From Candidatus Nomurabacteria bacterium (GTDB lineage Bacteria > Patescibacteriota > Minisyncoccia > Phycocordibacterales > UBA5272), in NCBI GenBank assembly GCA_040376695.1, contig JBEIQD010000002.1:114436-178435 (forward strand): DNA of 64,000 nucleotides, given 5' to 3'. The stretch's first letter is position 1. The number at the start of each line of letters is the position of its first letter. Below the pieces are notes generated by a model, which did not search any database, had not been told where the DNA came from, and worked only from the letters and a program-made list of their open reading frames with translations. This document shows positions 7,411-51,120 of the stretch, piece after piece. Position numbers and translations under genes: made by a program.

Positions 7411-10400
7411 TTATCGGATATCGAAGGCGATAGTGCCAGTCGATGTTTCTGCTGTGTATGTTCCACTTCCCTTTTCTACCGAACTAATTCGACATGTGTT
7501 CATAAGAAGAACCTTAAACTGTTCTGGGATCATGTACTCTGTGTTAAGAACAATTGAATCCTTTGGTGTAAGCCCCTTATCTTTACGAGCATCCTGAACT
7601 GCACGCATAAGATTACGAACATCTCCTTCTGCTTGGAGTGTGTCCGTTACAGCAGTATCAAGCACACAAACTTCTGTCTGAGTTTCATCAAATGAAATTT
7701 CCTTCACGTTAAGCTCATCAAGGATTGTTGAAACATATTCCTCTCCTATCTTCTCCTTAAGAGTAAGCTTCTGAAGAGGTTGCCTTACAGCAATCTTTGC
7801 TTGTGTACGAAGTGACAGTGCTACCGTCACAAGTTCACGAACCTTTTTCATGGTAACTAATAATTCAGTATCTACTGAGAAACTCTGAGGCCAGACTTCC
7901 AGATGCACGGATTCTTTTTCACCACCAACCACGCTGTACACTCGCTCAGCAACAAATGGCATCACAGGAGCAATTACTTTTGAAAGTGTTAATAGTACGT
8001 ATGTTAGTGTTTCGTAGGCTTGCTTCTTTTCCTCGACACTCACATCTCCCTTAAGGCGATCTCGGCTCCGTCTAACGTACCAAACAGACAAGTCATCAAT
8101 GAGCTGATCAATTGGATATGTTGCCTCATCAAGCATGTAGGTGTCATACCCTTTAGTTACTTTTGCAACAACCTCATGAACTCTTGATATGATCCATCTA
8201 TCTAAAACATTTGTAGAATTTATTGTTGCTTCCATGACACCTTCTCTGTTCATCTCATAAAGTGAGAGAACATTTTCTAGCCGAGATATAACTTTCTTGT
8301 ACACATCCTCCACAGTCTTATCAGTAAATAAAACATTTTCTCCCTTAACCACAGGGCTCGACAGGAGCGCATAACGCATTGCGTCTGCTCCATATTTTTC
8401 TACAAGCTCCATCGGGTCAGTATAGTTTTTATCGCTCTTTGAAAGTTTAAGACCTGATTCCGCCATCACAAGACCGTTCACTATAACGTGCTTATATGGA
8501 GCTTTATCAAACAATCCAACCCCTAAGTTAATAAGCGAGTAGAACCATCCACGTGTTTGGTCTAATCCTTCAGCAATAAATTCGGCTGGATAGTTCTTTT
8601 CAAAGATTTCTTTGTTCTCAAATGGATAGTGAAGTGACGCAAACGGCATAGATCCAGATTCAAACCAACAATCAAAAACATCTCCAATTCGTTTATAGGT
8701 TACTCCATCAATTTCCAGTTCTATTTCATCAATATACGGACGATGAAGATTAACAGCCCCTGTTTCATCTCGCGGAACGAGTTGAGGATGCACAGGCACC
8801 ACATGGGCGTGCGCAGGAGATGTGTCTTCGTGCATCATCATATCCGCAACAATTTCCTCATCAGTACGCAAATGAGCTGCTGCTTCAAGCATCCACACAG
8901 GAGATCCGTGTGTTACAAATAGAATCTTCTTACCTTCGTATTCTTTTTCACAGTCATGCAAGACCTGCATTGTGCGGTTCATAAGATCACGATGAGATTC
9001 CCCTTCTGGTAATTTAGTGTCGAGATCCATGAAATCAGCTCGCTGACGTACATGGAACTCATCAACACTTGTACCTGAAAAGATTCCCGTATCAAACTCA
9101 CGAAGCCGCTTATCAAAAACTGATTCTGCTCCACACATCTCTTTTATAATGCGAGCCGTTTCTTCTGTTCGAAGCAATGGTGAATACACGATAATATCTA
9201 TCCCTTGTTCTTTTGCAAAGTGCCCAGCGTGACGAGCTTGTTCTTTACCAGTTTCAGTAAGGTGGTTGTGTGGGTCACCATAACTATCCAACACTCGATT
9301 AATATTACTCTGCGCTTCACCGTGACGAATAGCAAAATACGTATTCTTTGGTTTATTTTTATTCAGCGCAGCAAGCTCTTTAAGTGAGCCAATGATTTTC
9401 ATATCCCCGGCTTCATTTTTCCACACAGGAAGAGGAGCACCCCAATATCGCGAACGTGATACCGCCCACTCATGAGCACCTTCAAGCCACTTACCAAATC
9501 TTCCATCTCTAATATGTGACGGAGTCCAGCCAATATTTTTATTTTCTGAAAGAAGTTTCTCTTTCATTTTAGGGACATCAACAAACCATGAAGATGTAGC
9601 GTAATTAAGAAGCGGTGTCTTACATCGCCAACATAATGGATATGAGTGAATAATTTTATGCTTCTCAAAAAGTTTTCCGTTATGAGCTAAATACTTAATG
9701 ATCTCAATATCAGCTGACTGTGTGTCATCTTTTTGCTTTACCTTCATTCCAACAAAATCAATCACCTCGGTTGTAAATGTTCCATCCATCTTCACATGCT
9801 TGATAACTGGAATTCTGTGTAACTTTGCAAGATCCATATCCTCTGCCCCAAAAGCTGGGGCTTCATGTGCAACACCTGTTCCAGTATCAAGCGTAATAAA
9901 ATCAGCATGCCAGATTTTCCAGATATTTTCTTTATTATCAATTTCTTTATCTACAAAATACGGGAATACTGGCTTGTATGATTTTCCAACAAGCGTTGAA
10001 CCTAGAAACATATCTTTCACCTCATACTTCATATCTTTCAATACATCTTCTTTTCTTTCATTAGCAAGAATATACATTCCATCCATTCCTTCAATCGACA
10101 CCTTTATATACTGAGCCGTCTCACAAAGTGCGAGCGCTGTGTTTCCAGGAAGTGTCCACGGTGTTGTAGTCCATGCAAGTACATACGTACCTGGCTCATC
10201 CGCTAATTCAAACTTTGCAGTTACAGAAAGATCAGTCACATCATGGTATTCCATTCCTACTTCAGATTGTGCAAGTGTTGTTTCGCAACGCGGACAGATG
10301 TGCATTATTTTATATCCCTCATAAGCAAGTCCCTTTTCATACAAAGTTTTCCATGCCCACCAAATACTTTCCGTATAAGTTGAATCCATTGTCTTATATG

Positions 10401-10851
10401 CATGCTCCATATCAACAAAACGTCCAACTCGTGGAACAACTTTTTTCCATTCTTCTTCATACTGAAGAACAGAATTAAATGCATCTTGATTAAACTTATC
10501 AATTCCAAACGCCTCAATGTCTTTTTTTGAAGCAAGCCCTAATTTCTTTTCAATAAGATTTTCAATAGGAAGACCGTGACAATCCCAACCCCAAATACGA
10601 CGAACGGAGTTACCTTTCATTGTCTGATATCGAGGAATAGCATCCTTGATGGTTCCTGCGAGAATGTGTCCATGGTGAGGAAGCCCTGTAGCAAATGGTG
10701 GCCCATCATAAAAAGAGAACGATCCTTTGGGTATTTCACTTGCGGGATTTTCTACTGACTTTTCAAAGATTTTATTCTCTTGCCAGAAAAGAAGTGTTTC
10801 TTGCTCTTTCTCGTTTATGGTTTTTGGTTTAGGTAAAGTATTGTCAGACAT
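7411..10851 (-). CDS. ileS: isoleucyl-tRNA synthetase (type 2) with an inserted histidine-phosphatase (PGM-family) domain
   Basis: 1146 aa with HIGH (PHHGHILAG), a CP1 editing region, GLKLSKS, and a type-2 C-terminal domain. Between PLPVW and HRPYID it has ~225 aa instead of the ~40 in Thermus IleRS. The insert contains RHGE...SPLLRTEETA...VTHG. Confidence 0.9.
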   Translation of the reverse strand: MSDNTLPKPKTINEKEQETLLFWQENKIFEKSVENPASEIPKGSFSFYDGPPFATGLPHHGHILAGTIKDAIPRYQTMKGNSVRRIWGWDCHGLPIENLIEKKLGLASKKDIEAFGIDKFNQDAFNSVLQYEEEWKKVVPRVGRFVDMEHAYKTMDSTYTESIWWAWKTLYEKGLAYEGYKIMHICPRCETTLAQSEVGMEYHDVTDLSVTAKFELADEPGTYVLAWTTTPWTLPGNTALALCETAQYIKVSIEGMDGMYILANERKEDVLKDMKYEVKDMFLGSTLVGKSYKPVFPYFVDKEIDNKENIWKIWHADFITLDTGTGVAHEAPAFGAEDMDLAKLHRIPVIKHVKMDGTFTTEVIDFVGMKVKQKDDTQSADIEIIKYLAHNGKLFEKHKIIHSYPLCWRCKTPLLNYATSSWFVDVPKMKEKLLSENKNIGWTPSHIRDGRFGKWLEGAHEWAVSRSRYWGAPLPVWKNEAGDMKIIGSLKELAALNKNKPKNTYFAIRHGEAQSNINRVLDSYGDPHNHLTETGKEQARHAGHFAKEQGIDIIVYSPLLRTEETARIIKEMCGAESVFDKRLREFDTGIFSGTSVDEFHVRQRADFMDLDTKLPEGESHRDLMNRTMQVLHDCEKEYEGKKILFVTHGSPVWMLEAAAHLRTDEEIVADMMMHEDTSPAHAHVVPVHPQLVPRDETGAVNLHRPYIDEIELEIDGVTYKRIGDVFDCWFESGSMPFASLHYPFENKEIFEKNYPAEFIAEGLDQTRGWFYSLINLGVGLFDKAPYKHVIVNGLVMAESGLKLSKSDKNYTDPMELVEKYGADAMRYALLSSPVVKGENVLFTDKTVEDVYKKVISRLENVLSLYEMNREGVMEATINSTNVLDRWIISRVHEVVAKVTKGYDTYMLDEATYPIDQLIDDLSVWYVRRSRDRLKGDVSVEEKKQAYETLTYVLLTLSKVIAPVMPFVAERVYSVVGGEKESVHLEVWPQSFSVDTELLVTMKKVRELVTVALSLRTQAKIAVRQPLQKLTLKEKIGEEYVSTILDELNVKEISFDETQTEVCVLDTAVTDTLQAEGDVRNLMRAVQDARKDKGLTPKDSIVLNTEYMIPEQFKVLLMNTCRISSVEKGSGTYTAETSTGTIAFDIR

Positions 10852-11085: not shown

Positions 11086-12840
11086 TTACATCCGACTTGG
11101 GGCAACAATGCCGAGCGTATAGAGGCCGTGCGCCAAGATGTTTTTCGTAGCCGTTGCCAACATAACGTAATACGCACTTGTTTCTGCGTCCTCCTCATTC
11201 ACAATTTGTACACGTCCATACATATTGTTAAACGCACGAGTAAGTACAAGAAGGTGTTGAACGATGTGATGTGGACCCATGTCTTTGTACGCCTTCTGTA
11301 GCACTTGTGTATACCCAATGATAACTTGCTCAAGCTCACGTTCAGGGTGTTCTATTGCATAACTCTCAATTGAGATTCCTGCTTCTTCTGCTTTATCAAG
11401 CAACGCCGATAGTCTGGCATGTGTATATTGAAGATACGGCCCTGAATCACCTTCAAATGAAAGAGACTTCTCAAGATCAAAAATCATATCCTTTCCTGGG
11501 GCTGATTTAAGAATTGAAAACTTAATTGCTCCGACAGCGATATCATTGATGAGCTGTGCCTTCTGCCCCTCTCGCACTTTCATGTCTTCCAATCGCACAG
11601 CGATACGCTCACTTACTGTGGCGATGAGCTCTTCTGCAGGAATCACATTACCTTTTCGAGATGACATCTTCCCTTCTGGTAAACGAAGCATCCCGTGAGA
11701 AACATGAAGTAATTTATCAGCAAGTGGTTTATCTATCTGCTCAAATACCGCTTTCATCACTTTGAAATACTCATCGATTTCTTTTGCGGTCACAACAACA
11801 GAAAGAATAGAATCTGGAACGAGGAGATCTTTCTTGTAGGTATTACCCAGTTCCTTTGCTTCATACGTCGGAAGTCCTTGGGAGTTTATGAATACACGAG
11901 TATGCAATCCAACATCCTCACCCTTAAATACAACTGCTCCGTCTGACTCGTGGAAAACAGTACCGATATTCTCTTTAACAATTTGCGCGCCGTCTTTTCC
12001 AACCTCACTTTCAAAAATATAGTGATCAAACTGCGTTCCAAGTTTTTCATAGATCGTCTCAAAGTAATCAAGGCTCCACATTTTACCAAGGTCATATAAA
12101 CGATTTATTTCTGAATCCTTCTTTTCGAAAATCTTTTTGTTAATGTCTTTAAAGGCGTTCTTCTTATCTTCTAGCGTTGCAAACGTATAAAGTTCCTCAT
12201 CTGCAAACATGGTATTACCAAGAGCGTAACAAGCACCAAGAAATTGCACCTTATGCACTAGCGGAGTTTCTTCATTAAAGAAGACATCAATCTCTTTATT
12301 TTCATTCTCATGAGCAAGCTTCCACTGAATTCCAAAAATTGCCTGCGCAACATGCATACCAACATCTCCTTGGTAACACACACGGGTTACATCATGCCCT
12401 CCTGCTTCATAAATACGCGCGACTGATTCTCCAATTGCATTCGGTACAAGGTGTCCAATATGGAAAAGCTTGAATGGATTTGGGTCGGTATATTCAACAA
12501 TTACTTTTCCTTTTCCACCAACGTTAGTAATATCACTGAGCGCAACTGATTCTGCTTCATCAGTTCGTACATCATCTTTCAAAAAGAAATTAATAAATCC
12601 AGGTCCTGCCACTTCAGCTTTTTCTACAACATCTTCCAACTCGGTCATAAGTGTAGAAATAAGCTGCTCTGCAGTTTCCTTAGGAGATACGCCTGTTTGT
12701 TTTGAAAGAAGGAAAGCTACGTTTGTGGCGTAGTCACCATGAAGACTGTCTTCTGGCATATCCAAAGAAAAAGAAGGCTCAACCCCTTTTTCCTGACATA
12801 GTTCTGCAAGTGCGTCTTTGATGGTCTCGTACGAATTCAT
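11086..12840 (-). CDS. argS: arginyl-tRNA synthetase
   Basis: 584 aa with a HIGH motif (FHIGHLVPNAIG), a DALR anticodon-binding C-terminus, and a terminal ...RM. Confidence 0.9.
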   Translation of the reverse strand: MNSYETIKDALAELCQEKGVEPSFSLDMPEDSLHGDYATNVAFLLSKQTGVSPKETAEQLISTLMTELEDVVEKAEVAGPGFINFFLKDDVRTDEAESVALSDITNVGGKGKVIVEYTDPNPFKLFHIGHLVPNAIGESVARIYEAGGHDVTRVCYQGDVGMHVAQAIFGIQWKLAHENENKEIDVFFNEETPLVHKVQFLGACYALGNTMFADEELYTFATLEDKKNAFKDINKKIFEKKDSEINRLYDLGKMWSLDYFETIYEKLGTQFDHYIFESEVGKDGAQIVKENIGTVFHESDGAVVFKGEDVGLHTRVFINSQGLPTYEAKELGNTYKKDLLVPDSILSVVVTAKEIDEYFKVMKAVFEQIDKPLADKLLHVSHGMLRLPEGKMSSRKGNVIPAEELIATVSERIAVRLEDMKVREGQKAQLINDIAVGAIKFSILKSAPGKDMIFDLEKSLSFEGDSGPYLQYTHARLSALLDKAEEAGISIESYAIEHPERELEQVIIGYTQVLQKAYKDMGPHHIVQHLLVLTRAFNNMYGRVQIVNEEDAETSAYYVMLATATKNILAHGLYTLGIVAPSRM

Positions 12841-12867: not shown

Positions 12868-12903
12868 AATAAAAAGAAAAACCAGCACAATGGCTGGTTT
12901 TTG
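12868..12903 (-). terminator. rho-independent terminator separating the GC-rich island from argS
   Basis: On the minus strand, aaaccagc-cattgt-gctggttt is followed by a T-run. Confidence 0.7.
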
Positions 12904-12915
12904 TATGCAAGCAAC

Positions 12916-13506
12916 TCAGCCTGCGACGGCGAGCTCTTTTTCAAGATGATGGGCAACAACATCCCGAAGCTTCTGTGAAGCTTCAATTGGATCAGTTGCA
13001 TCGATATACACGACCTCGGTCTTCCATGGAAGGAAACCTGTATTTAGGGCGCGGGCCACATTTCTGAAAGCCATACTCACCCGCTCATCAGCATCCTTGT
13101 GGGTGAAGATGATAAACAGTGTTGGTTTCCCAACAAGCTGTTCACGTCCGAAGGCAGCATGGAGCAAGCTTGATTCCCCAGGCGCCATTTCATGCCTCGC
13201 AAGAAGCGTGTATCCGAGCGAATCACAAATGACATGTTCGCCTCGCTCGAGCGCAGGACGAATAATCTGCGCTTCATGATCAATACGGAGCGCCCAAATG
13301 AGATGACGCTCAATCTCAGGAACGCTTGTTGCAGAATCTTCATGTAGGAGCGTTCGCAGTTTTTCCGCAAACGGTGTACCTCCTGGTTCGCGAGTCTGCA
13401 AGATATTATTTTCTCCAGTTCTCTTGGGTAAGTACTTGAGTACCGTGCAGGCATCGTTACCTGCCCTATCAACGACGCCAGCAATCACAATGAATTTTGG
13501 TTCCAT
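12916..13506 (-). CDS. thymidylate-kinase-like protein with degenerate P-loop (putative pseudokinase)
   Basis: 196 aa. The bacterial-type Tmk motif TREPGGT is conserved. The P-loop reads IVIAGVVDRAGNDA in place of IxxEGxDGxGKTT, so the Lys and Ser/Thr are replaced by Asn and Asp. GC is ~52%. Confidence 0.6.
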   Translation of the reverse strand: MEPKFIVIAGVVDRAGNDACTVLKYLPKRTGENNILQTREPGGTPFAEKLRTLLHEDSATSVPEIERHLIWALRIDHEAQIIRPALERGEHVICDSLGYTLLARHEMAPGESSLLHAAFGREQLVGKPTLFIIFTHKDADERVSMAFRNVARALNTGFLPWKTEVVYIDATDPIEASQKLRDVVAHHLEKELAVAG

Positions 13507-13636
13507 CAGAATCTCCTTGTTTAATAAAAGTACAATTTATACTTGCTCACACTAACACACAAAAATAACTATGTCGATGAAGCTCTATAGTAAAAGCCGA
13601 GTTCCACTACGTGGAACTCGGCTAGTTAATTACCTA

Positions 13637-14335
13637 TCAGATTTCAATGCCTTTTATTTGAAAGTGAGGCTTGATGTGCTTGAGCACTTCCAGATGGACA
13701 TCATCCCGTGACAGCTCGTGCTTGCCCTGGAGACATTCAACTACTTCCCACCCAAAGTGTTCAGCGTAAAAAATGCCACCCTCATGCCCCATGCGGACAT
13801 ACTCAGAATCACTTTCAACAGCATCAAGCTTGCTGCCGCCGCTATCAGAACGTTTTTGTGCCCGAGCACGAGAAAGCCAGAAAGGGATTTTGAGATAGAG
13901 CACGAACGCAGGCCTTGGAAGACCCATCGTTCCATACTCCAAATCGTAGAGCCACTTGCCATACCGCTCACGCTCTTCCGACGTACCAATCTTTCCACCT
14001 TGATGAAGCAGATTGGATTCGACATAGCGATCAAAGATCACAATGTCGTGTTCAGCAATGAGTCCCTCGAGATACTCTCGTGACTCACGCCGATCCATCG
14101 TGTACGGCAAACTCGCCGCATATGGATCAAGTTTCGCAAATTTGTACTTTGCGGCATCATCACCTTTCAGCGCTTCCCACAAAACCCAACCGCCCGTTGT
14201 CTCCTTGTAGCGAGGAAATGAAACACTTGCTACTTTGAAGCCTTTTGCCTCCAAGCTTTCCTTGAGGAGTTTGCTTTGTGTTTCCTTGCCTGCACCGTCA
14301 GAGCCTTCGATGGCAAGACTTATTTTTTTCGACAT
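13637..14335 (-). CDS. tmk: thymidylate kinase (type I/eukaryote-archaeal-like)
   Basis: Canonical P-loop ISLAIEGSDGAGKETQ, the DRY motif FDRYVESNLLHQGG, and a GLPRP lid. The start was set at MSKKISL. GC-rich. Confidence 0.75.
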   Translation of the reverse strand: MSKKISLAIEGSDGAGKETQSKLLKESLEAKGFKVASVSFPRYKETTGGWVLWEALKGDDAAKYKFAKLDPYAASLPYTMDRRESREYLEGLIAEHDIVIFDRYVESNLLHQGGKIGTSEERERYGKWLYDLEYGTMGLPRPAFVLYLKIPFWLSRARAQKRSDSGGSKLDAVESDSEYVRMGHEGGIFYAEHFGWEVVECLQGKHELSRDDVHLEVLKHIKPHFQIKGIEI

Positions 14336-14463
14336 CTCTTTCTCCTTCGCCCGCAGGCAGTAATATAAATGAACCTGCACCAAGGGTACAGGAAAGAAAG
14401 AGATGCCACAAACAAATAAAAAACAGGCACCGTCAAGGTGCCTGTTTGGAAAATTTCAGGCCA

Positions 14464-15822
14464 TTAAGCTTTCGCCACAATGTCCTGAGTGCCCCGCTTC
14501 ACATCAAACCGACCCATGTCGGATTCGTCGATGTAAACAGGGACGCCAATCTCACGGATCTGCTTGCCCATCTCTTGCGCTACTTCGCGGAGCGTAGGAT
14601 GAACAGTAGAACCAGAGCGAAGCTCCACAAGATACACCAAAGCCGGAAGGTCGCCTGTGACACGACAAGCAACTTGCTGCCCCATCGGAAGGTAGTACTG
14701 AAGGGCAGCTTCGCCATGATTGCTCACGTTTTGCTCCCACCAGTGCTTGATTTCCCTAACGAGCTTTTCCGCCTTCGCGCGAAGTTCAGGCCCCAACTGA
14801 TCAAGATACCAGTCCTGGAAACCGATATTCGGCGTCAACATTGGCATGCGCTGAATTACAGCACGTTGCCGTTGGATATCACGGAAAGATCCGAAATCGA
14901 GCGCAAACTCGAATTGGAGCGTCCCCGCTTCAGCCAAATGCTTCGGCAGTTCAGTCCGCGCTGGTCGCGAATTTATTGCCTCAGAATGTTCAAGCACAAG
15001 CTTGGCATCAAGCGTATTGCGGGTCAGGATTACTTCTTCCTTCCAATACATCGGCGAGAAATAGTAATCCTTTTCCATGCAAACTTCGCGATATGTCTCG
15101 CTTGCCGCATAACGCTTATGACCGAACGAATTCGGATGCGCCTGCTGCAAAGCTTTCTCGATCATGTTGGCAATGTCGTGTACTTCCGAAAGCGGGTGAG
15201 CTCGCAACCAGCCGAGCTTGTCCGCCGCTTGCCGCAGGTTACTTGTCCAGGCCAGGTTTGTTGCGGCGCCGGCAGGCAAAAATGCGCGAAGAATATCGAA
15301 CGCGCGGGCAGCGATCGCCTTTTCGTAGACAGCTTCCTTTTCTTCCGGCTGCATCGGATACCTTGCCTTCAACTCTTCCTTGAGTTGAGGCATGGCTTCG
15401 ATATAGAACTTGCGCAACCATTCCTGCGGATTCTCCTCAGGTGACAGCTCAAGAAGATTGATGAATACTGCGACTGCAAAGTCCTGGTACCGCGTTGAAA
15501 ATTCCTGGCCACAATAGAGAGCCCAATCCTGGATCGCCTTGGCAACCAGCATGGACACACCTTCGATAAAGATGGTTGTGTTGCCACAATCACCGATAGA
15601 TTTGTGTCCATAGCCAACGTAGTACTGAGCCATGAACTTGCCAGAGCCGACTTCTGCCAGCTTCTTCAGGTGTGCAAGCACTGATTGCGGTGACCGCGAA
15701 TAGAGCGCCTGGAGCATGGCCAAATCTTCGGCTGTGATGATCGCCCCGTCATAAAGGACGAGAACGAACGGACCTTTGGTTGGGTCACCTTGGGTGAAAT
15801 GTTTAAGTTGGCTGATGTCCAT
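14464..15822 (-). CDS. thyX: flavin-dependent thymidylate synthase ThyX, tandem-fused (two ThyX domains), with degenerate RHR motifs
   Basis: 452 aa. Both halves align to ThyX. The N-half reads YGHKS...FIEGVSMLVAKAIQDWAL...EFSTRY...LRAFLPAGAATNLAWTSNLRQAADKLGWLRAHPLSEVHDIANMI. The C-half reads FEFALDFGSFRDIQRQRAV...YLPMGQQVACRVTGDLPALVYLVELRSGSTVHPTLREVAQEM. RHR is lost in the N-half (DWA) and reads RQR in the C-half. Confidence 0.7.
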   Translation of the reverse strand: MDISQLKHFTQGDPTKGPFVLVLYDGAIITAEDLAMLQALYSRSPQSVLAHLKKLAEVGSGKFMAQYYVGYGHKSIGDCGNTTIFIEGVSMLVAKAIQDWALYCGQEFSTRYQDFAVAVFINLLELSPEENPQEWLRKFYIEAMPQLKEELKARYPMQPEEKEAVYEKAIAARAFDILRAFLPAGAATNLAWTSNLRQAADKLGWLRAHPLSEVHDIANMIEKALQQAHPNSFGHKRYAASETYREVCMEKDYYFSPMYWKEEVILTRNTLDAKLVLEHSEAINSRPARTELPKHLAEAGTLQFEFALDFGSFRDIQRQRAVIQRMPMLTPNIGFQDWYLDQLGPELRAKAEKLVREIKHWWEQNVSNHGEAALQYYLPMGQQVACRVTGDLPALVYLVELRSGSTVHPTLREVAQEMGKQIREIGVPVYIDESDMGRFDVKRGTQDIVAKA

Positions 15823-15902
15823 GAGGACCTCCTAAATATGGTTTAGATTGATGAAAAAACTACCGTACTCAATCCTACAGGTTTGTAGAAGTAAAAGCAA
15901 AA

Positions 15903-16322
15903 CTACTTTCCCGTACTTCCAAAACTCCCCGCTCCACGCTTAGTTTCAGAAAGAACTTCTGATTCTTCAACTTCCCACAGCTCAACTTTCTGAATAACCA
16001 TTTGTGCCACCTTGTCCCCTGACTCAAACGTATACGGCGTATCATTTAAATTATGAATTGGAATAAATAACTCTCCTCGATACCCAGAATCAAGAACACC
16101 TCCTAAGGTTTTAATTCCTTTTGATCCAAGAGATCCTTTATCCCAAGCAAATACGCAATATCCATCTGGTACTTCGTAGGCAATTCCTGTTGAAACCTTC
16201 ACTGTTGTATGTGGTGGAATAATTGTTTCTTCACAACAATAAATATCAAGACCTGCATCATCGTGATGGGCGCGAGTTGGAAGCTTTGCATTAACATGCA
16301 ATTTTTTCACTTTTAATTTCAT
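15903..16322 (-). CDS. dut: dUTP diphosphatase (trimeric dUTPase)
   Basis: Motifs AGLDIY, GVLDSGYRGE and RGAGSFGSTGK. Local GC is ~33-40%, unlike its neighbours. Confidence 0.9.
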   Translation of the reverse strand: MKLKVKKLHVNAKLPTRAHHDDAGLDIYCCEETIIPPHTTVKVSTGIAYEVPDGYCVFAWDKGSLGSKGIKTLGGVLDSGYRGELFIPIHNLNDTPYTFESGDKVAQMVIQKVELWEVEESEVLSETKRGAGSFGSTGK

Positions 16323-16344
16323 GTGTCTTCATTATACCAAAAAG

Positions 16345-16374
16345 AAAAAGCCCGCACCGAGGTGGGGGCTTTTG
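16345..16374 (-). terminator. intrinsic terminator between the dcd-like gene and dut
   Basis: On the minus strand, aagcccccacc-tc-ggtgcgggctt is followed by tttcttttt. Confidence 0.5.
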
Positions 16375-16378
16375 AAAA

Positions 16379-17428
16379 CTAAACGAAGTTCTTCGCAAGC
16401 TTGGGACCGCTTTGACCCTGATAAGAGCCTTTGTAAACGTCATGATTGTCGCCGCAGACATATTCGAAGCGCACCCGCGCAACGACTTGTCTATGCGTTA
16501 GCGTTAGCGGCTCCTGCACAGCCATTTCGCATGTGATTTCCCCTTTGAACCCTTGATCCACGAAACCGGCAAAGTTGTTGCGGGCTTCGATAATCCTTTC
16601 GTCCATTGGAGCGATTTCAGCAGTGATGTGCCCTGGCAAACAAAGACCTTCTTCAGTTGTTGTGATATAGAAGCGTTTTTCCTTCATGCCGATTTTCGAG
16701 TTCTCCACGAACAACGCCTTGAAAAACTCATCTTTCGGGTTCGGCTTGCTAAAAAAAGCTGGCCGATTGGTCTGCCTAGAAACATACGCAGCTGGACCAT
16801 TCACAGGTTTGAGATTCAAATGAAGGTATACCGATCCATCGCGATCAACGCGGAGGTTTTCGAATGAAATTGGTTTCCCTTCACGATCCACAATGAGAGG
16901 AGTTTTTTTGTGCTCCTCCTTAACCTGCTCTAGCGAAAGGCGTGTATCTTTGTTGAAAACACGCAACTGCGTGAGCTGATCACCTTCTGCAAAAACTCCA
17001 GGAAACGCCAAGCAACGGATCAAAGCCCACAATTCGCCACGATACCCTTTCGGGACCTGATCAAGACCAGGGTCTCCGTTCACCAAGACGCGGGTGTGAA
17101 CGAACTGACGACCAGTGGTCGAACGTGGATTTGCATACCCGTACAAATCTTCGGGAAGCTCGAGGCGTTCCTGAAGACGCGCAATGTAATGCAATCCAAC
17201 TTCGCAAGGATGTGAAGGGTGATGCATAGAAAACCCAACCTCCTTCATCATCGCCCAAACACTCTGACCCACAGAAGGTTGTTGAAAACTGTTCAAGCGA
17301 AACATTTCGCCTGTAAGACAGAGATTTAAAGAGCCAGGATTGAGTGCTTCGAGGTTGGCATTCTCGATGACTCCTTTTTCCATCAACCCTAAGAGCATAC
17401 TCTTAGGGAATGTGCCGAATTTTTTCAT
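16379..17428 (-). CDS. long-form dCTP deaminase-like protein (tandem dUTPase-fold, Pfam DCD/PF06559-like)
   Basis: 349 aa. The N-half reads RSTTGRQFVHTRVLVNGDPG...GELWAL (compare Dcd GRSSLARLG...HxTAxRIDPGWSG...LE). The C-half repeats the fold (FAGFVDQGFKGEITCEM). GC is ~50%. Confidence 0.55.
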   Translation of the reverse strand: MKKFGTFPKSMLLGLMEKGVIENANLEALNPGSLNLCLTGEMFRLNSFQQPSVGQSVWAMMKEVGFSMHHPSHPCEVGLHYIARLQERLELPEDLYGYANPRSTTGRQFVHTRVLVNGDPGLDQVPKGYRGELWALIRCLAFPGVFAEGDQLTQLRVFNKDTRLSLEQVKEEHKKTPLIVDREGKPISFENLRVDRDGSVYLHLNLKPVNGPAAYVSRQTNRPAFFSKPNPKDEFFKALFVENSKIGMKEKRFYITTTEEGLCLPGHITAEIAPMDERIIEARNNFAGFVDQGFKGEITCEMAVQEPLTLTHRQVVARVRFEYVCGDNHDVYKGSYQGQSGPKLAKNFV

Positions 17429-17496
17429 GAGACACCTCGTAATTGTTAGAACTTTTTACCCTTTCGGGACCTGGCATATAGCCTACGCTCCAAAAC

Positions 17497-17526
17497 AAAA
17501 AGCCGCAATATTGCGGCTTTTTGTTT
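17497..17526 (-). terminator. rho-independent terminator downstream of rplK
   Basis: aaaaagccgcaatattgcggcttttt. Confidence 0.75.
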
Positions 17527-17538
17527 TTATGGTGTAAA

Positions 17539-17952
17539 TTACTTTACTTTGATACCGATTGAACGAGCTGTTCCTTCGATAATCTTCATTGCCTGTTCTA
17601 CAGTGTGAGCAGTTAAGTCTTTCAACTTAATTTCAGCAATTTCACGAACTTTCTCAGGAGAGATTGTTCCAGCGTTACCTTTAGAGTTTCCTTTAGCAAC
17701 GTTTGCTGCCTTCATAACGAGAGATGTAGCAGTAGGAGTCTTGATAACGAAATCGTATGTTCGATCTTCGTACACATAAATCTTTACTGACATACGCCCT
17801 TGCTGTCCTTGAGTTGCAGCGTTGAACTTGTTAACGAAATCTCCAATCTGAACACCAGCCTGTCCAAGGGCAGGACCAAGTGGAGGAGCGGGAGTAGCTT
17901 TACCTGCTTCGATTTGCACCTTTACGTATTTTGTAATTTTCTTTGCTGCCAT
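17539..17952 (-). CDS. rplK: 50S ribosomal protein L11
   Basis: 137 aa: MAAKKI...VQIEAGKATPAPPLGPALGQ... Confidence 0.95.
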   Translation of the reverse strand: MAAKKITKYVKVQIEAGKATPAPPLGPALGQAGVQIGDFVNKFNAATQGQQGRMSVKIYVYEDRTYDFVIKTPTATSLVMKAANVAKGNSKGNAGTISPEKVREIAEIKLKDLTAHTVEQAMKIIEGTARSIGIKVK

Positions 17953-26770: not shown

Positions 26771-29353
26771 CTATTTATAATTAAACTTTTCCTTAAGATC
26801 TTTATAGTCCTGAACAAGACCTGCATAGGTTGGCTCGGGCTCTTCATCCGTCTGATTGTGTCTATTACCTTTTCTGCTGGTCTTATCAAAAAGATCATTC
26901 AGTTCTTTTACTTTATCTTTAGGCATTTCTGGAAGCAACGACAAACTAGACATCCTTAGATTAGCTCTATATCTACTGACGATACCCGCAAACATGATCT
27001 TTTCGACGTAGTCCTCAAGATAGTTACTCATTAGGTCATAAACAACTCCCAAATCTACACGTGAACGTTTAGGCGCTTTCTCTAGAATTTTCATTCTTTC
27101 ATCCATCTCTTCAATCTTTAGCTTTAGAGTACTAGCTGTGTCTAGTTTGGTAGATTCTAAAATTACTAATCCATCCATCTTTTTGAGATGAACCACTTTT
27201 TTAGTCTCATATTCCAACGAGTTTAGAAAATAGAGATTGTGGGTAAACACAATTACTTGATTATTTTCAGCAAGCTTCAGTATTCGCTTAGCAACATTCG
27301 TTATATTATCCTCGTCTAGACTGTTTACTGGATCATCAAAAATGTAGATACCCTCGTATTTGTTTACTTCACACTGCGCAAAGAAGTCCGCGAGCGAGTG
27401 GAGTTTCCTTTCTCCTTCGCTAAAAATATCACCTATTCTTTTATCGTCTAAACTGTAAGTTCTCTTATTCACGCCGTCTCTAGTTGTGGGCTTTATGCTC
27501 CAATATGGAGGAACAGTAAACTTTAAGCGTTTATATTCCTCAGAAAGACAGGTTTCGAATTCCTTTAATCCTGCGACTTTAGAAAACTCAGACTCTGCAC
27601 GACTTATAGATTGCTTAAGAACATATACCGCTTCGCGCTTTGCTTGTAGTTTCTCTCTTTCTTTTTTACTAGCTAAATACGAGATGATTGTTTTCTTGTT
27701 TTTCTCAATAATCGCCTCTTCTTCTAGAGGTAAAGCTTCTGCTGTCAAACTACGAACTGACTCAACTTTGTCAGTTGTTAGTTTCTCTAGTTTAGCTATC
27801 TCAACCCCAAAAGCTTCACATACAGATTCGTACTCTTTATAAAAAGTTTTTAATTTATCTATTTCCTCATCAGTCAAGCTAATAGCGGAGAAGTCCTTTA
27901 ACCCTTTTTCAATCTTTTTATAAATTCCCACTATCTCTTCAAGATTAGGAATAAGAGGTTCAGTCTTTTGTATATGACTAAACTCTGCTTCAATAGTCTC
28001 ATTGGTGCTTGCTAAGTCCTCTATCATTCTTATCTCTCTAGAAACATCCCCAGCTAGTTCGTTTATCTGACCTCTTTCTCTTCTTAGTTTACTTTCATGA
28101 TCGGAGGCTATTTCCCCGTAGGCTTTGATGAGGCTTTTCGATTCTGGAGTTGCTAAATGTTGCTGGCAATATAGGCAAGTTTCTGAAGCATATTCATGTT
28201 GAGAATCATGATCAAGTGTTTTAGTGAATTCTATACTCTTCTGAACGAAATCATTCCAAAGATCATCTTCTATCCACCCGCCTGCGACTAGTTGAGCTAT
28301 TTTGCCTCTTCCGTTTTCTTCAAATGCTTTCTTTGCAAGATTGAAATTCTCGATCCTGTCGCTGAAACTTTTTATCTTCTCCTTGTCGTATCGAAGCACC
28401 CATTCTCCCTCGTCATTCTCATCAGCAATACTTTTTAAGACATCTACAGCTTCTCTACTGGCAGTACGAATATTTTTTAAAGTCTCTTGTGGGTTATCTT
28501 TATTTAAAGTCTCAAGAGTCTTTTTTAGACTTGCCAGATGTTTCTTTTTCTTTGCGTCAAAATTAATAGTAGCAAGCTTAGCTTCAATATCTTCTTCAGA
28601 CAAATCAAGAAGGTCTGAAACATCTTCCTCTAAGATTGCTTCTGCGGAAGTAATTGAGGAATCTGTATCATCAATAGCCCTGTCTAGCACTTCTTCAACT
28701 CTTTCATAAAGATCTCTTAAGTAAGAAAAATACTCAAGCTTAAGGTGTGCAATTTTAAAAGCATTAGTTTGATCAGATTCAACTAAAATTTGAGATATAC
28801 CCCCGTCGAATATCTTAATAGGAAAACTCTTTGAGACTTCACCAGTTTTCCAGTTTAGAGTTTTACTAGCCCCGTCGAGTCCTTCGTAAACTAATGAGCA
28901 TTCTGAATTCTTAATCGCAGAAGCAAGATTGGGATACACTTGCTTGTTTATTCCGAAGAGTTTGCAAAGAGCAAGATATACGGAACTTTTACCCGCTCCA
29001 TTCTTTCCATAAAACACATTTAATCCCTTATCTAGAGCTATAGGCTCCTTTATATCCAGCAATCCGACATTTAGTATCTTAGAGATTTCTTTTATCGCCT
29101 TAGCTTCTGACCCAGACTCTGCCAACGTAACAACCTCAGTCTTCTTTGAAGAACCAGTTTTTGCCTTCTTTGGAGACCTCTTAAGCTCCAATGCAACTGT
29201 AGAAATTTCTTCATCATCAAGACAATCACTTAAAACAGACTCAACCAGAGGTTGAATCCATGCATATTTTTTATCAACACAAACAGAACTAGCCTTTATG
29301 TGGCTAATTGCGTCAGGAAGAATGATTGCGTCTTTGTCTCCTTCTGGTGGCAT
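26771..29353 (-). CDS. RloC-like anticodon-nuclease-type defence protein (ABC-ATPase with coiled-coil/CxxC hook and C-terminal HEPN-like domain)
   Basis: 860 aa with Walker A GKNGAGKSS, an ABC signature-like FSEGERK, Walker B IYIFDDPVNSLD and H-loop FTHN. The ATPase halves are split by a ~500-aa predicted coiled coil containing ETCLYCQQH (CxxC). The C-terminal ~150 aa carry RKGNRH (Rx4H). Confidence 0.55.
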   Translation of the reverse strand: MPPEGDKDAIILPDAISHIKASSVCVDKKYAWIQPLVESVLSDCLDDEEISTVALELKRSPKKAKTGSSKKTEVVTLAESGSEAKAIKEISKILNVGLLDIKEPIALDKGLNVFYGKNGAGKSSVYLALCKLFGINKQVYPNLASAIKNSECSLVYEGLDGASKTLNWKTGEVSKSFPIKIFDGGISQILVESDQTNAFKIAHLKLEYFSYLRDLYERVEEVLDRAIDDTDSSITSAEAILEEDVSDLLDLSEEDIEAKLATINFDAKKKKHLASLKKTLETLNKDNPQETLKNIRTASREAVDVLKSIADENDEGEWVLRYDKEKIKSFSDRIENFNLAKKAFEENGRGKIAQLVAGGWIEDDLWNDFVQKSIEFTKTLDHDSQHEYASETCLYCQQHLATPESKSLIKAYGEIASDHESKLRRERGQINELAGDVSREIRMIEDLASTNETIEAEFSHIQKTEPLIPNLEEIVGIYKKIEKGLKDFSAISLTDEEIDKLKTFYKEYESVCEAFGVEIAKLEKLTTDKVESVRSLTAEALPLEEEAIIEKNKKTIISYLASKKEREKLQAKREAVYVLKQSISRAESEFSKVAGLKEFETCLSEEYKRLKFTVPPYWSIKPTTRDGVNKRTYSLDDKRIGDIFSEGERKLHSLADFFAQCEVNKYEGIYIFDDPVNSLDEDNITNVAKRILKLAENNQVIVFTHNLYFLNSLEYETKKVVHLKKMDGLVILESTKLDTASTLKLKIEEMDERMKILEKAPKRSRVDLGVVYDLMSNYLEDYVEKIMFAGIVSRYRANLRMSSLSLLPEMPKDKVKELNDLFDKTSRKGNRHNQTDEEPEPTYAGLVQDYKDLKEKFNYK

Positions 29354-29397
29354 TGGCTAAAGTATATGCCTTTTCAGATTGTATAGATACTACCAAT

Positions 29398-29820
29398 TTA
29401 AGACTCTTTTTTGAGCTCAGCGATCTCGTTAATCATATATTTTTCTGTCTCAGTAACTGTGACCGTACCCGCTTCAATTTGCCAAGCTTGAGAGATGATA
29501 GTCTCATTTGTAAAAAGGTTCTTAACCGACCAAGCCTTATGCGCGATTTGTGATTTATTGTCATACATAAAAACCTTCTCCAAAGAAAGACAAGCCTTCT
29601 TTGCAGGACTAAAGAAAACTTCGAAATCAACAGATGAAATACTCTCATTGTTTATTTCACTCTTCTCTTGCTTCTTTAGGTCTGGTAAAAAAGTGGCACA
29701 TTTCATATCCATAGCAAGCCCGTCATCTTTTTTACTCTCCTTTTCTAGAAAAAACGAATAACCCAATACAACGTTAAGGAGAACAGAAGCACACAAGAAG
29801 AATGTTATGTTTCGATTCAT
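29398..29820 (-). CDS. hypothetical N-terminally membrane-anchored protein (~140 aa)
   Basis: The start was chosen at MNRNITFFLCASVLLNVVLGYSFFL (TM helix). It lies immediately upstream of, and co-oriented with, the RloC-like gene. Confidence 0.35.
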   Translation of the reverse strand: MNRNITFFLCASVLLNVVLGYSFFLEKESKKDDGLAMDMKCATFLPDLKKQEKSEINNESISSVDFEVFFSPAKKACLSLEKVFMYDNKSQIAHKAWSVKNLFTNETIISQAWQIEAGTVTVTETEKYMINEIAELKKES

Positions 29821-30322
29821 GATATGTAAAAGATCTGGTGGGCAAACAAAAAGCCCATTACCAGTTATGGTCGTAAGACCAACATGTGCCTTTCGACACA
29901 CGACACTCAGCATGCCCACTGATAATGGGTTCTTTATTGCTGAGTGATTTTTAAAACCATACCTTAATGTTTCCACTAAGGGTTAGGTCAGAATTACACG
30001 TTATTAAGTTGTAGTAACAAGGTTATTATAGCATTTATCAATTCCTGTCACTGCTGTTACACCAAAAGTGCTATCACAGGGCAATATACGTGTTATCACG
30101 GGAGAAAGTAGGCGCACATTAATAAGCTAAGCCCTTGAAAAATAAAGAGAAGATCAGTGAAATAGTATAAAAAGAATTACTTTTACTCTCTATGGGTCTA
30201 TTTTAAGGCTTATAGAGGGTGGGGTGGGTGGTTCCCCTTTCGTTTAGAGCTTAATTATTAGGTACCCATCGGAAACGCTATGCAATTTTTAATTTATGTA
30301 TAACAAAATCTGAAAAGTCGCT

Positions 30323-30352
30323 TGCAATTTTTTCGATTTCGTGGTACAATAT
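30323..30352 (+). promoter_or_regulatory. near-consensus sigma70-type promoter
   Basis: TTGCAA, a 17-nt spacer, an extended -10 TGG, then TACAAT. Confidence 0.55.
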
Positions 30353-30615
30353 GTCTTATCTTCCCCTGAGGGAAAGATTTTACAAAAGAATTCTCGTTTA
30401 TAGAAGGTTCCTAAATAAACGACGACATTATTTTTGATCAAAATCCACTTCGACGCATTTATATCAATGGGCATACGATAGACATTCCGTCTTACTCGAT
30501 TTGAAACAAATCTTAATTACGAGATTCTAGATTAACAATAGGAGAAATCTGCACTTTTATTCCCTTTATGAATAAATTGGTGCTTTTTACATCTCCAACA
30601 CTAGATTAATAACAA

Positions 30616-30921
30616 TTGGACATAGAACACACTACTCTCCGCTTAAGGAGCGAAGAAAATGCAGGACTAGGAAGAATCTTTAGAGAGTTAAGAAAAATAC
30701 AAAGACTTGAAGTCCTTGGAGACATAATTCTCTACAAAACTATTATTAACACTCTTTCACTAAACGGCTATGAGGTATCAGAAAGATCTATTACAAGGCA
30801 CTTTGTAAATATTGATCTAGATGACTACAACCCAGAAGATCGTCGAGAAATTATAAAAGACCTCAAAGGAGGTTCCAAGAAAATTTACGAACAAGCAAGG
30901 AGAGGTCATAAACGACCCTAA
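30616..30921 (+). CDS. hypothetical small protein with possible HTH (element regulator/excisionase candidate)
   Basis: 101 aa. LSLNGYEVSERSITRHF is HTH-like. The C-terminus is basic. Confidence 0.35.
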   Translation: MDIEHTTLRLRSEENAGLGRIFRELRKIQRLEVLGDIILYKTIINTLSLNGYEVSERSITRHFVNIDLDDYNPEDRREIIKDLKGGSKKIYEQARRGHKRP

Positions 30922-30971
30922 AATCCTCTACAAACGACGAGGACTGCCTTTGCCGACCTAATTACTAAAGC

Positions 30972-31151
30972 ATGTTTTTATCATCTAAAAACGTCTCCGA
31001 CTTTCAGGAGATTTACAAAGAAACTTTTAACGAAGAAATTTCAACAGAAGAAGCAATTGAACAAGGGGCAAAACTTATAGAGCTCATAAGAGCTGTGTAC
31101 AGACCCATCACTAAAGAAAATTACGAAAAATACAAAATAACTCATGGATAA
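30972..31151 (+). CDS. small ORF (59 aa) translationally coupled to the downstream replication gene
   Basis: MFLSSKNVSDFQEIYKETFNEEISTEEAIEQGAKLIELIRAVYRPITKENYEKYKITHG. Its stop overlaps the next start (ATGGATAA). Confidence 0.2.
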   Translation: MFLSSKNVSDFQEIYKETFNEEISTEEAIEQGAKLIELIRAVYRPITKENYEKYKITHG

Positions 31152-32430
31152 ATACAATCAACTTACAACAGAAGAACTGGCGGATATTCTCTCGCTAACA
31201 ATAAAGGAGGATAAGGAAAATAAAGTGGCGACTTTCCTTTGCCAACTATCGGCATTCACTGAGGACTCTCAGTTCAATGTTTTATTTAACGCCCCTTCGT
31301 CATCAGGTAAATCTTATATACCTTTAGAGATAGCAAATCTATTTCCACAGGAAGACGTTCTGAAAATTGGGAACTGCTCTCCGACCGCTTTCTTTCATGA
31401 GCAAGGAGAGTACGATAAGGCAACAAATACAACTATGGTAAATCTAGAAAGAAAAATTCTCATATTTCTAGATATGCCACACACTCAGCTTTTAGAGAAA
31501 TTGCGTTCCCTTTTATCTCATGATGAAAAGGAAATGGTTTCAAAAATTACAGACAAAAGCGAAAAAGGTGGACACAGAACAAAGACAGTAATTCTAAGAG
31601 GTTATCCTTCTGTGATTTTCTGCTCAGCAGGATTCAATATTGACGAACAAGAGTCAACGCGATTTCTACTTCTTAGTCCAGAATCTACACATGAGAAGAT
31701 ACAACAAGCTATTGATCAAACAATTAGACGGGCTTCAAACTTAGAAAGCTACGAAGAGTGGCTCAATGCCGACCCAAGAAGGCAACTACTCCGAGAAAGA
31801 ATTGTAGATATTAAAAGGTCTCTCGTGGGAGATATACAAATATCTTCTGAGGGGCTTGTTAAAGAACTATTCATGCAAAATAAGAAAAGCTTGAAGGCAA
31901 GAGATCAGAGAGACATCAAAAGATTTGTCGCTTTAATTAAATCTTTTGCTTTGTTAAATCACTGGTGGAGAAAACAAACTAAGACTGGCATAATTGCCAA
32001 TGAAAATGATATCAGACAGGCATACGAGATATGGAAGAAGATTTCAGTATCACAGGAGTTTAATTTAGCTCCTTATGTCTACGATCTTTACAAAGATATT
32101 ATTATTCCTCTTTGGAAAGAAAAGAAGGTCGAGGTCATGAGTGACGAATTTAATCTTGATAAGCGTTATGGTATCTCTAGGTATGAAATACTACAGCGTC
32201 ATTACGACTTACACAAAAGAATGCTGGACGGATATAAGCTACGAACAGAAATATTAAGGGTGTTAGAAATAGCAGGTCTCATAACTCAAGAGCAAGATGT
32301 AAATGATAAAAGAAAATATCTAGTTTTCCCTTCAGTTGAAATTGAAGAAGAGTATAGTGTGGAGGAAGGTGGGGTGGCTAGCATTGTGAACACAAAATAC
32401 ATGCCCGTGTTTGCTGAAAATAATGCTTAG
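31144..32430 (+). CDS. SF3-helicase-like replication protein (phage/plasmid primase C-terminal-type P-loop NTPase)
   Basis: Walker A NAPSSSGKSY, Walker B ILIFLDMPH, and motif C VIFCSAGFN. 428 aa. Confidence 0.45.
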   Translation: MDKYNQLTTEELADILSLTIKEDKENKVATFLCQLSAFTEDSQFNVLFNAPSSSGKSYIPLEIANLFPQEDVLKIGNCSPTAFFHEQGEYDKATNTTMVNLERKILIFLDMPHTQLLEKLRSLLSHDEKEMVSKITDKSEKGGHRTKTVILRGYPSVIFCSAGFNIDEQESTRFLLLSPESTHEKIQQAIDQTIRRASNLESYEEWLNADPRRQLLRERIVDIKRSLVGDIQISSEGLVKELFMQNKKSLKARDQRDIKRFVALIKSFALLNHWWRKQTKTGIIANENDIRQAYEIWKKISVSQEFNLAPYVYDLYKDIIIPLWKEKKVEVMSDEFNLDKRYGISRYEILQRHYDLHKRMLDGYKLRTEILRVLEIAGLITQEQDVNDKRKYLVFPSVEIEEEYSVEEGGVASIVNTKYMPVFAENNA

Positions 32431-32553
32431 GTATATTATAAATATGCGAAACCATAAGATTAACCTTGATATTTGTAGCCAAAGATGGGGTAACAGTACT
32501 TGTGGTTTCGCGATTACAAGTATCATGCTGTTGCCCCTTTTTTGGTACAAGAT

Positions 32554-34176: not shown

Positions 34177-34219
34177 GGGCTCCACAAGCCCGCGTGCTAA
34201 CCATTACACTATAGGCACC
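34144..34219 (-). tRNA. tRNA-His (anticodon GTG) with encoded G-1 and CCA
   Basis: Manual fold: 7-bp acceptor GTGCCTA/TAGGCAC preceded by G-1. D-loop AATGGTTA. Anticodon loop TTGTGGA. T-loop TTCGAAT. A73-CCA. One C-U mismatch at 27-43. Confidence 0.75.
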
Positions 34220-34356
34220 ATCTGCAACATTCCGCTGGGAATGAGGGTTTTACTCTAACACATTTTCCTGCTTTTTTGAAGAGTGCGCTTTTCTTTGGAA
34301 GTGCTAGAGTTATCTTTGTATCGTTCATTACAACAGCAACAACCCAGGAGACAATC

Positions 34357-51104: not shown

Positions 51105-51120
51105 TCGAGTGGTTCACTTT

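Follow-up and report, generated by a model that had tools for sequence, protein, structure and literature searches.

The rplK-argS interval

The interval between rplK and argS in a 64,000-nt stretch of the genome of a Candidatus Nomurabacteria bacterium (the window) is filled by five open reading frames (ORFs), all on the minus strand, that belong to families of thymidylate metabolism. Their Pfam and NCBIfam matches, taken in order from 12916 to 17428, are to Thymidylate_kin (N-terminal half only), Thymidylate_kin, Thy1 (in two stretches), dUTPase, and DCD_N, DCD and DCD_C together; the ORFs and these matches bear out an earlier note, made from the letters alone, that had placed here five co-oriented minus-strand genes for a long Dcd, a Dut, a tandem ThyX, a Tmk and a Tmk-like pseudokinase. 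We refer to these thymidylate genes as the block, to the window's own locus as W, and to the compared loci by L-numbers. Upstream, secE, nusG and rplK stand in their usual order, with a terminator 3' of rplK. The features of the locus are as follows, with folding energies and z-scores given for the terminators.

11086-12840, minus strand: argS, downstream neighbour of the block
12877-12902, minus strand: tmk2 terminator, -12.2 kcal/mol, z -4.8; downstream border of the locus, ahead of argS
12916-13506, minus strand: tmk2, Tmk-like pseudokinase, 196 aa; Pfam match to residues 13-97 only
13595-13623, minus strand: tmk terminator, 13-bp stem, -23.4 kcal/mol, z -6.9
13637-14335, minus strand: tmk, predicted dTMP kinase, 232 aa from the ATG at 14335; Mycobacterium-like 'FPRY' subtype, P-loop GSDGAGKET
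14421-14447, minus strand: thyX terminator, 11-bp stem plus TTTTTTATTT, -18.3 kcal/mol, z -5.8
14464-15822, minus strand: thyX, predicted tandem (two-repeat) flavin-dependent thymidylate synthase, 452 aa; Pfam Thy1 (PF02511) in two stretches
15903-16322, minus strand: dut, predicted dUTPase, 139 aa; Pfam dUTPase 88 bits, TIGR00576 120 bits (cut-off 102.55)
16331-16339, minus strand: TGGTATAAT, extended -10-like box read from the sequence, 8 nt 5' of the dut start codon
16340-16373, minus strand: dcd terminator, hairpin plus TTTTTCTTTTT, -16.2 kcal/mol, z -2.95
16379-17428, minus strand: dcd, long two-domain dCTP deaminase-like protein, 349 aa; DCD_N, DCD and DCD_C above cut-off
17429-17491, minus strand: leader upstream of dcd, with a GTAGGCT box, a small CCC-GAAA-GGG hairpin and a GAGGTG ribosome-binding site
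17492-17527, minus strand: rplK terminator, perfect 18+18-nt palindrome AAAACAAAAAGCCGCAAT/ATTGCGGCTTTTTGTTTT, -22.8 kcal/mol, z -7.5; kept in 8 relatives; upstream border of the locus
17539-17952, minus strand: rplK, upstream neighbour of the block

Position of the locus among relatives

Relatives were collected by a scan of GTDB with the window's L11, each species being represented by a single genome; this gave 80 loci, which were then surveyed by tblastn. Close relatives are those with an L11 at least 81% identical, of which 29 have a complete rplK-argS interval, and 28 distant Parcubacteria were sampled beside them. Thymidylate genes lie at the rplK-argS site in 29 out of 29 close relatives and in 24 out of 28 distant ones, and the order nusG-rplK-(thymidylate genes)-argS-ileS-recO, with secE preceding nusG, recurs in L002, L003, L009, L010, L094 and L097. 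The ~100-nt segment of terminator and leader 5' of dcd is, by alignment, conserved in 8 relatives that carry at least three different types of dcd.

By tblastn, rplA is absent after rplK in all of these close and distant relatives (~57 loci). For the organism's own genome our view is that of the 64-kb window, in which tblastn with the L1 proteins of E. coli and T. thermophilus returned no L1 homologue; with these probes rplA is found immediately 3' of rplK in L065, L072, L084, L088 and L092, i.e. in four loci from outside the Candidate Phyla Radiation (CPR) and one Parcubacteria locus (L065). A preprint (bioRxiv 10.1101/2022.01.07.475337, citing Brown et al. 2015) likewise describes a group of Parcubacteria that lack L1. 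The idea that the block had been inserted in place of rplA therefore falls: none of the related genomes has rplA between rplK and argS, the arrangement is shared, and the loss of L1 is a trait of the clade. Together, the synteny in relatives and a leader conserved across dcd types show that the rplK-argS position of the thymidylate genes is ancestral to a large Parcubacteria clade and that rplA was not displaced here.

Replacement of genes in place

At this position 22 architectures occur among the 29 complete rplK-argS intervals. The variants for dUMP supply are a long Dcd of at least three types (~30% mutual identity), a short canonical Dcd, or a dCMP deaminase; those for methylation are a tandem ThyX in 4 genomes, ThyA in 20-21 genomes, mostly accompanied by DHFR, or a divergent Thy1-like protein of ~350 aa; those for phosphorylation are at least three types of Tmk, with or without the pseudokinase; and in some genomes SHMT and FolD, for one-carbon supply, are at the locus as well. 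The divergent ~350-aa protein sits in the thymidylate-synthase slot of L017 (12098-13147, minus strand) and L020 (11642-12703, minus strand, adjoining a ThyA-like match) and scores 24.4 against Thy1, with a cut-off of 24.8; it is possibly a third variant of thymidylate synthase.

The genes of the block differ in their closest relatives (Dcd L094; Dut L097; ThyX L096; Tmk L094, L097 and L020). Judged by the flanks, the nearest genomes are L002 and L097, with IleS, RecO, TPR and CLIPPER proteins ~71-79% identical to those of the window (IleS 77-79%). The window's Dcd is 34% and 29% identical to those of L002 and L097, as against 95% and 92% to those of L094 and L009, two genomes with flanks distant from the window's (IleS 65%, RecO 59%). 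Dut is 89% identical to that of L097, 83% to those of L094 and L096 and 49% to that of L002; Tmk is 63% identical to those of L094, L097 and L020 and 28.5% to that of L002; ThyX is 87, 82 and 74% identical to those of L002, L003 and L006.

One such replacement can be read directly from L094 and L009. These genomes are 99% identical in IleS, 100% in RecO and 97% in ArgS, with 93-98% identity in the flanking DNA, and one has dut-thyX-tmk (2.7 kb) where the other has dut'-thyA-dhfr (2.2 kb), the two Duts being 48% identical. The breakpoints are clean, ~35 nt into dut and ~22 nt before argS, and the difference is a very recent in-place replacement. The locus thus has what in-situ displacement would leave behind, conserved flanks around equivalent but non-orthologous or xenologous genes at the same position. 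Lateral acquisition, which the earlier note had proposed for the block as a whole, is in this sense half right: transfer has shaped the block, but gene by gene, in place and among related Parcubacteria, not as one module.

The neighbouring argS is itself of two kinds. In genomes whose L11 and NusG are >90% identical, the ArgS beside the locus is of one or the other of two xenologous types, ~40% identical; the L003 type (L003 10672-12417, compared with 11086-12840 in the window) is the better match in L017, L026, L027, L030, L031, L033, L035 and L038. Gene replacement therefore reaches into the flank.

Predicted functions of the five proteins

The profile matches, the motifs and the fold of ThyX show the earlier gene calls to be correct, along with the coverage of the route from dCTP through dUTP, dUMP and dTMP to dTDP, and the atypical members that had been pointed out (the two-domain Dcd, the tandem ThyX and the Tmk-like pseudokinase) are real. 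As read from their sequences, the window's five genes jointly span dCTP to dTDP. In the proposed scheme Dcd would convert dCTP to dUTP, Dut would yield dUMP, tandem ThyX dTMP and Tmk dTDP; these steps are assigned on family membership, on conserved motifs and because canonical alternatives occupy the corresponding slots in relatives.

Dcd scores 90 bits for DCD_N, 98 bits for DCD and 50 bits for DCD_C, and matches PDB 2r9q, a structural-genomics entry, with an E value of 1.6e-26. Both domains of the long two-domain dCTP deaminase (PF06559/PF22569, PDB 2r9q type) are present, the N-terminal one with its RSTTGR Ser/Arg motif and the C-terminal one with a GF.D.GF.GE.T.E motif that keeps the catalytic Glu; GFVDQGFKGEITCEM of the window's Dcd aligns with GWVDPGFNGQITLEL of dCTP deaminase 4xjc. 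The protein is predicted to convert dCTP into dUTP. Dut reaches the equivalog level of a trimeric dUTPase, with 109.5 bits against PRK00601 (cut-off 103) in addition to its TIGR00576 score. Its translation has the motifs AGLDI, GVLDSGYRGE and RGAGSFGSTG, with motif 2 reading KGS, not RSS/RSG, and it would hydrolyse dUTP to dUMP and PPi.

ThyX scores 74.6 bits against Pfam Thy1 (cut-off 24.8). A sequence-only search gave no link from the tandem ThyX to solved structures, with the profile reaching just E 0.14, and a fold search was therefore needed. The AlphaFold2 model of the 452-aa protein (predicted local distance difference test score 85, predicted TM-score 0.85) returned ThyX structures for all of the top 50 PDB matches, each spanning ~190 of the 452 residues; since the modelled protein matches only ThyX structures, each over about half of its length, it is a tandem ThyX. 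The N-terminal half keeps S109-x-R111-Y112 (S109-T-R111-Y112 in the window) with QDW in place of RHR, and the C-terminal half keeps R318-(H/Q)-R320 without SxRY; the retained motif residues are invariant across 23 homologues. A complete ThyX motif would arise only by complementation between the two halves. The enzyme would methylate dUMP to dTMP with methylene-tetrahydrofolate and reduced flavin. Homologues of the tandem ThyX number more than 4485, and the named ones are from Parcubacteria/Paceibacterota. Our literature search found no paper linking ThyX with Parcubacteria; the sole paper on ThyX and CPR treats amoebal Dcd/ThyX.

Tmk matches Thymidylate_kin at 64.6 bits (cut-off 27), has a Walker A P-loop, and is predicted to phosphorylate dTMP to dTDP. 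Tmk2 keeps the bacterial-type dTMP-site motif TREPGGTP..EK.R in an alignment with canonical Tmk but has no GK[ST] P-loop (neither the Walker A lysine nor the serine); the P-loop position reads AGVVDRAGNDAC and varies across all 8 family members, CDS stands where canonical Tmk has DR(F/Y), and a deletion has removed the LID region. With the P-loop, the DR motif and the LID gone and TREPGGTP kept, we class it as a Tmk-derived pseudokinase and not as a Tmk. On these residues a P-loop-less Tmk2 cannot be a kinase; most likely it is a dTMP-binding regulator or a partner subunit of Tmk. Its close homologues number 8 in 5.8 billion clusters, and in W, L002, L020 and L097 tmk2 always lies between tmk and argS.

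Terminators, modules and the dcd leader

Repeat search and folding place hairpins at both ends of the block, 17492-17527 and 12877-12902, so that the bracketing intrinsic terminators of the earlier note are real. Good terminators also close dcd, thyX and tmk, and TGGTATAAT precedes dut; the block is therefore made of four terminator-bounded modules, namely dcd, dut-thyX, tmk and tmk2. The TGGTATAAT box is a candidate promoter of the dut-thyX module.

For the leader in front of dcd, a possible promoter consists of a -35 element TTGCGG, a 17-nt spacer and a -10 element TAGGCT, overlapping an arm of the terminator; a promoter scan of the region made no call for it. Folding of the leader hairpin as a structured RNA was not significant (z -0.74), and an Rfam scan of the block gave no match. 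The leader also holds one copy of an exact 17-nt direct repeat, CAGGTCCCGAAAGGGTA, at 17457-17473, the other copy lying inside dcd at 17043-17059, where it encodes QVPKGY (both on the minus strand). Chance would not be expected to give any such repeat (mean of 0.01 in shuffled sequences). In L096 the leader copy recurs 5' of a different dcd type, and the repeat is possibly a recombination scar.

Composition of the block

The block was described earlier as ~50-55% GC against ~35-40% in its flanks. It is indeed richer, at 48.1% against 40.4% outside, a smaller difference than was claimed; only thyX exceeds 50% GC (52.3%), and dut is not GC-rich. The deviation is significant: among 595 sliding windows of 4.6 kb the block ranks first for both GC and tetranucleotide distance. 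Measured against 42 core genes with a third-position GC content (GC3) of 0.318 +/- 0.041, GC3 is 0.50 in dcd (z +4.5), 0.58 in thyX (z +6.5), 0.485 in tmk (z +4.1) and 0.44 in tmk2 (z +3.0). In dut it is 0.25 (z -1.7), making dut the sole native-looking gene of the block by composition.

Among the compared loci, those with variable architecture (W, L002, L097, L009, L020, L023, L026 and L029) have a cassette GC3 above the flanks by +0.1 to +0.29. The genomes with the stable architecture DCD-DHFR-THYA-SHMT-TMK-DUT-FolD (L013-15, L019 and L021) have no GC3 excess, and their cassette tracks the host. The window's type of Dcd has a GC3 of 0.46-0.50 in three hosts with a flank GC3 of 0.32-0.45, and the overall GC of the relatives ranges from 29% to 58%. 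The best reading, we think, is that dcd, thyX, tmk and tmk2 were imported recently from GC-richer Parcubacteria and that their amelioration to the host's 40% GC is incomplete.

Weighing the explanations

We consider it probable that the block is an ancestral, canonical dTMP/dTDP locus of an L1-less Parcubacteria lineage whose genes have been repeatedly displaced in situ. Four terminator-bounded modules stand behind a leader conserved across relatives; the content of the locus is exchanged repeatedly, on site, through homologous recombination in conserved flanks and junctions; and the incoming genes are xenologous or non-orthologous equivalents from other Parcubacteria. Several observations weigh against this account. 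Dcd reaches 140 bits against the NCBIfam equivalog PRK07559, below its cut-off of 283; ThyX 33 bits against the equivalog TIGR02170, below 87.9; and Tmk, for which all equivalog models missed, has as its best NCBIfam match PRK07933 at 122 bits, below 193. No intact RHR(X)7S(X)R motif was found inside one ThyX repeat, the motif being split between the halves. No donor outside the family was identified, and the inspection for second copies of the genes covered 64 kb of the genome. The ThyX identities roughly follow the flank relationships, for which reason thyX may be older in W's lineage than dcd. Over ~60 loci, moreover, the mean GC3 relative to the flanks is +0.08 for ThyX, +0.07 for ThyA, +0.04 for Dcd and -0.035 for Dut, with dut nearly always lowest; given that ThyX and ThyA are raised and Dut lowered across so many loci, a small gene-specific GC component is likely, and part of the GC pattern may be gene-specific, or come from GC-biased gene conversion, and not from recent import.

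These GC3 means and the ThyX identities are also what speaks for plain vertical inheritance, with the GC3 excess a property of the genes or the locus (through codon selection or through GC-biased conversion at a recombination-prone site), as does the recurrence of a high-GC cassette with a low-GC dut in W, L002 and L097 despite their different gene variants. As the sole explanation it is refuted by Dcd, Dut and Tmk identities that are grossly incongruent with the flanks; near-identical genomes differ by a clean swap of one segment, the genomes with the stable seven-gene architecture lack the excess, and W's thyX excess of +0.26 is three times the family mean. We regard vertical inheritance as unlikely, though GC-biased gene conversion may contribute to the excess. 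A single, recently acquired island carrying the whole pathway and displacing rplA, which would account for a 4.6-kb stretch that leads the window in both GC content and tetranucleotide deviation, for its bracketing terminators and for the missing rplA, is very improbable: the synteny survey contradicts it, with the site occupied by thymidylate genes, and rplA absent, throughout the close and most of the distant relatives; L1 loss belongs to the clade; the five genes have different nearest relatives; and dut is compositionally native. Nor does the block look mobile, since it contains no integrase or recombinase by Pfam, no adjacent tRNA (the nearest is at 34 kb of the window) and no flanking direct repeats. 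We give least credence to an assembly or binning chimera that joined a GC-richer fragment to a 40% GC contig. The contig is metagenome-assembled and its composition shifts at gene borders, but an independent Logan assembly (ERR9973207 contig, L001) reproduces the segment from dcd to the beginning of argS, its proteins being 100% identical, the rplK-dcd junction with its leader is kept in 8 relatives, and the same synteny recurs in dozens of independent assemblies.

Also very improbable is a phage-derived block whose product is a modified pyrimidine nucleotide, or whose role lies in phage-host conflict, in place of ordinary dTTP synthesis. The block does have several atypical members and its locus turns over very fast; a tandem ThyX is encoded by 55 IMG/VR contigs and by jumbo phages such as Vibrio phage BONAISHI, and in four viral contigs a long Dcd adjoins it. 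However, the identity to viral ThyX relatives does not exceed 48%, whereas within Parcubacteria it reaches 90%; relatives substitute ThyA, DHFR, SHMT and FolD for ThyX; and no phage structural or integration genes are adjacent. The block contains no glycosyl-, aminoacyl- or hydroxymethyl-transferase and no hydroxymethylase, only the Dcd, Dut, ThyX and Tmk families, and there are no phage genes nearby. The modified-pyrimidine option of the earlier note is not supported by these results: because the thyX slot is interchangeable with ThyA and DHFR (often with SHMT and FolD) and the block lacks any modifying transferase or hydroxymethylase, its most likely products are ordinary dTMP and dTDP. A scan of viral sequences with the window's Dcd found no viral relatives of that type. 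Anti-phage defence through dNTP depletion, of the dCTP deaminase type, was likewise rejected: the PADLOC defence models matched none of Dcd, Dut, ThyX and Tmk2, and for Tmk they gave a marginal hit not above noise (PDC-M51B, E 1.5e-4).

A direct phage donor was considered and rejected: viral and GenBank phage relatives of ThyX are just 26-48% identical, so that none can be claimed. The 55 viral loci with a tandem-type ThyX (L099-L153, from IMG/VR) are in many cases 100-320 kb long with 55-69% GC, and four have the long two-domain Dcd alongside; L012/L119 also carries a NAD-salvage pair of NadM-Nudix and NAMPT.

A step beyond in-situ displacement of an ancestral locus, which we offer tentatively and hold to be doubtful, is that the rplK-argS interval of L1-less Parcubacteria is a dedicated exchange site, where lineages swap self-contained, terminator-bounded modules over strain-level timescales downstream of a promoter and leader that stay conserved, the driver perhaps being phage conflict over the dNTP pool. 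Such a site would be like an integron without an integrase, its modules being dcd types, dut-thyX or thyA-dhfr, tmk types and tmk2; the conflict would then have shaped the tandem ThyX, the two-domain Dcd and the Tmk pseudokinase, or these would be its regulators.

Comparison with known systems

The predicted route shares its four reactions and enzyme superfamilies with the canonical dCTP-to-dTTP route of E. coli and of ThyX-using bacteria. It differs in that the window clusters all of the steps at one locus, with a 349-aa two-domain Dcd, a tandem ThyX of complementary degenerate halves and an extra pseudokinase. The nucleotide module of phage T4 has a dCTPase, a dCMP hydroxymethylase and a dNMP kinase; phage hypermodification modules resemble the block in their clustering of dUTPase-fold enzymes, a thymidylate-synthase-like enzyme and a nucleotide kinase, from which the block is set apart by its lack of phage context and of a hydroxymethylase or transferase, and by viral homologues of at most 48% identity. 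With classical genomic islands it has in common a deviant GC and tetranucleotide composition and gene relationships discordant with the flanks, and unlike them it has no integrase, tRNA target or direct repeats, at a site that is occupied in all close relatives. As in the rplKA (L11-L1) operon, secE-nusG-rplK stand in order and a terminator lies 3' of rplK, but rplA is missing here.

Lateral transfer of non-homologous thymidylate synthases is an established cause of the sporadic occurrence of ThyA and ThyX (Stern et al. 2010, PMC2826268). The patchy alternation of ThyX with ThyA (and DHFR) within a conserved neighbourhood is of the same kind, and what differs here is the short distance (flanking proteins 99-100% identical), the involvement of every pathway step, the 22 architectures in 29 species and the conserved leader. 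In-situ gene displacement within conserved operons was reportedly described by Omelchenko and co-workers in 2003, and the rplK-argS locus is a dense, short-timescale CPR example of it. It offers a natural system in which to date and dissect non-orthologous gene displacement, so far mostly inferred over deep phylogeny.

The island as first claimed would have meant that a foreign metabolic island had replaced a ribosomal protein gene in a reduced genome, which is not so. CPR bacteria, including Parcubacteria, are thought to depend on salvage; this clade nonetheless retains the whole route to dTMP at a single conserved site and runs it with many interchangeable sets of enzymes. A local anomaly in GC can thus signal gene-by-gene replacement within an ancestral locus instead of the insertion of an island. 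The Tmk-like pseudokinase, with its few close homologues, and the complementary-half tandem ThyX are targets for biochemistry.

Other features of the window

A better candidate for a mobile element than the block lies at 26771-34218, where the gene of a large serine recombinase (32500-34176; Resolvase, Recombinase and Zn_ribbon domains) overlaps the 3' end of a tRNA-His (34144-34218) and is preceded by an AT-rich stretch (35-38% GC, 30-33 kb) and the gene of an 860-aa AAA_13/SMC-like ATPase. A match to the Rfam LOOT RNA (RF03000) at 29867-29989 on the minus strand, at 68.6 bits with a gathering threshold of 46.4, extends over the start of a 192-aa ORF without a Pfam match.

Outside the block, GC3-rich patches occur at 40981-41382, 44792-45307, 34276-34881 and 51061-52673. 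The ORFs at 40981-41382 (minus strand), 44792-45307 (minus strand) and 34276-34881 (plus strand) have a GC3 of 0.51-0.66, against ~0.32 in the core genes, and no Pfam match; they may be other imported genes, or not genes. The 1.6-kb patch at 51061-52673 (~54% GC) has long overlapping ORFs on both strands and sits between the gene of a 604-aa hypothetical protein and that of a T2SSE pilus ATPase; it gave no Pfam match and no Rfam match above noise, and contains no tandem repeats.

The IleS of the window (7411-10851, minus strand; 1146 aa) has a histidine-phosphatase domain (His_Phos_1, with its RHG motif) inserted between two tRNA-synt_1 parts, an architecture that is also present in L002, L003, L009, L010, L094 and L097.

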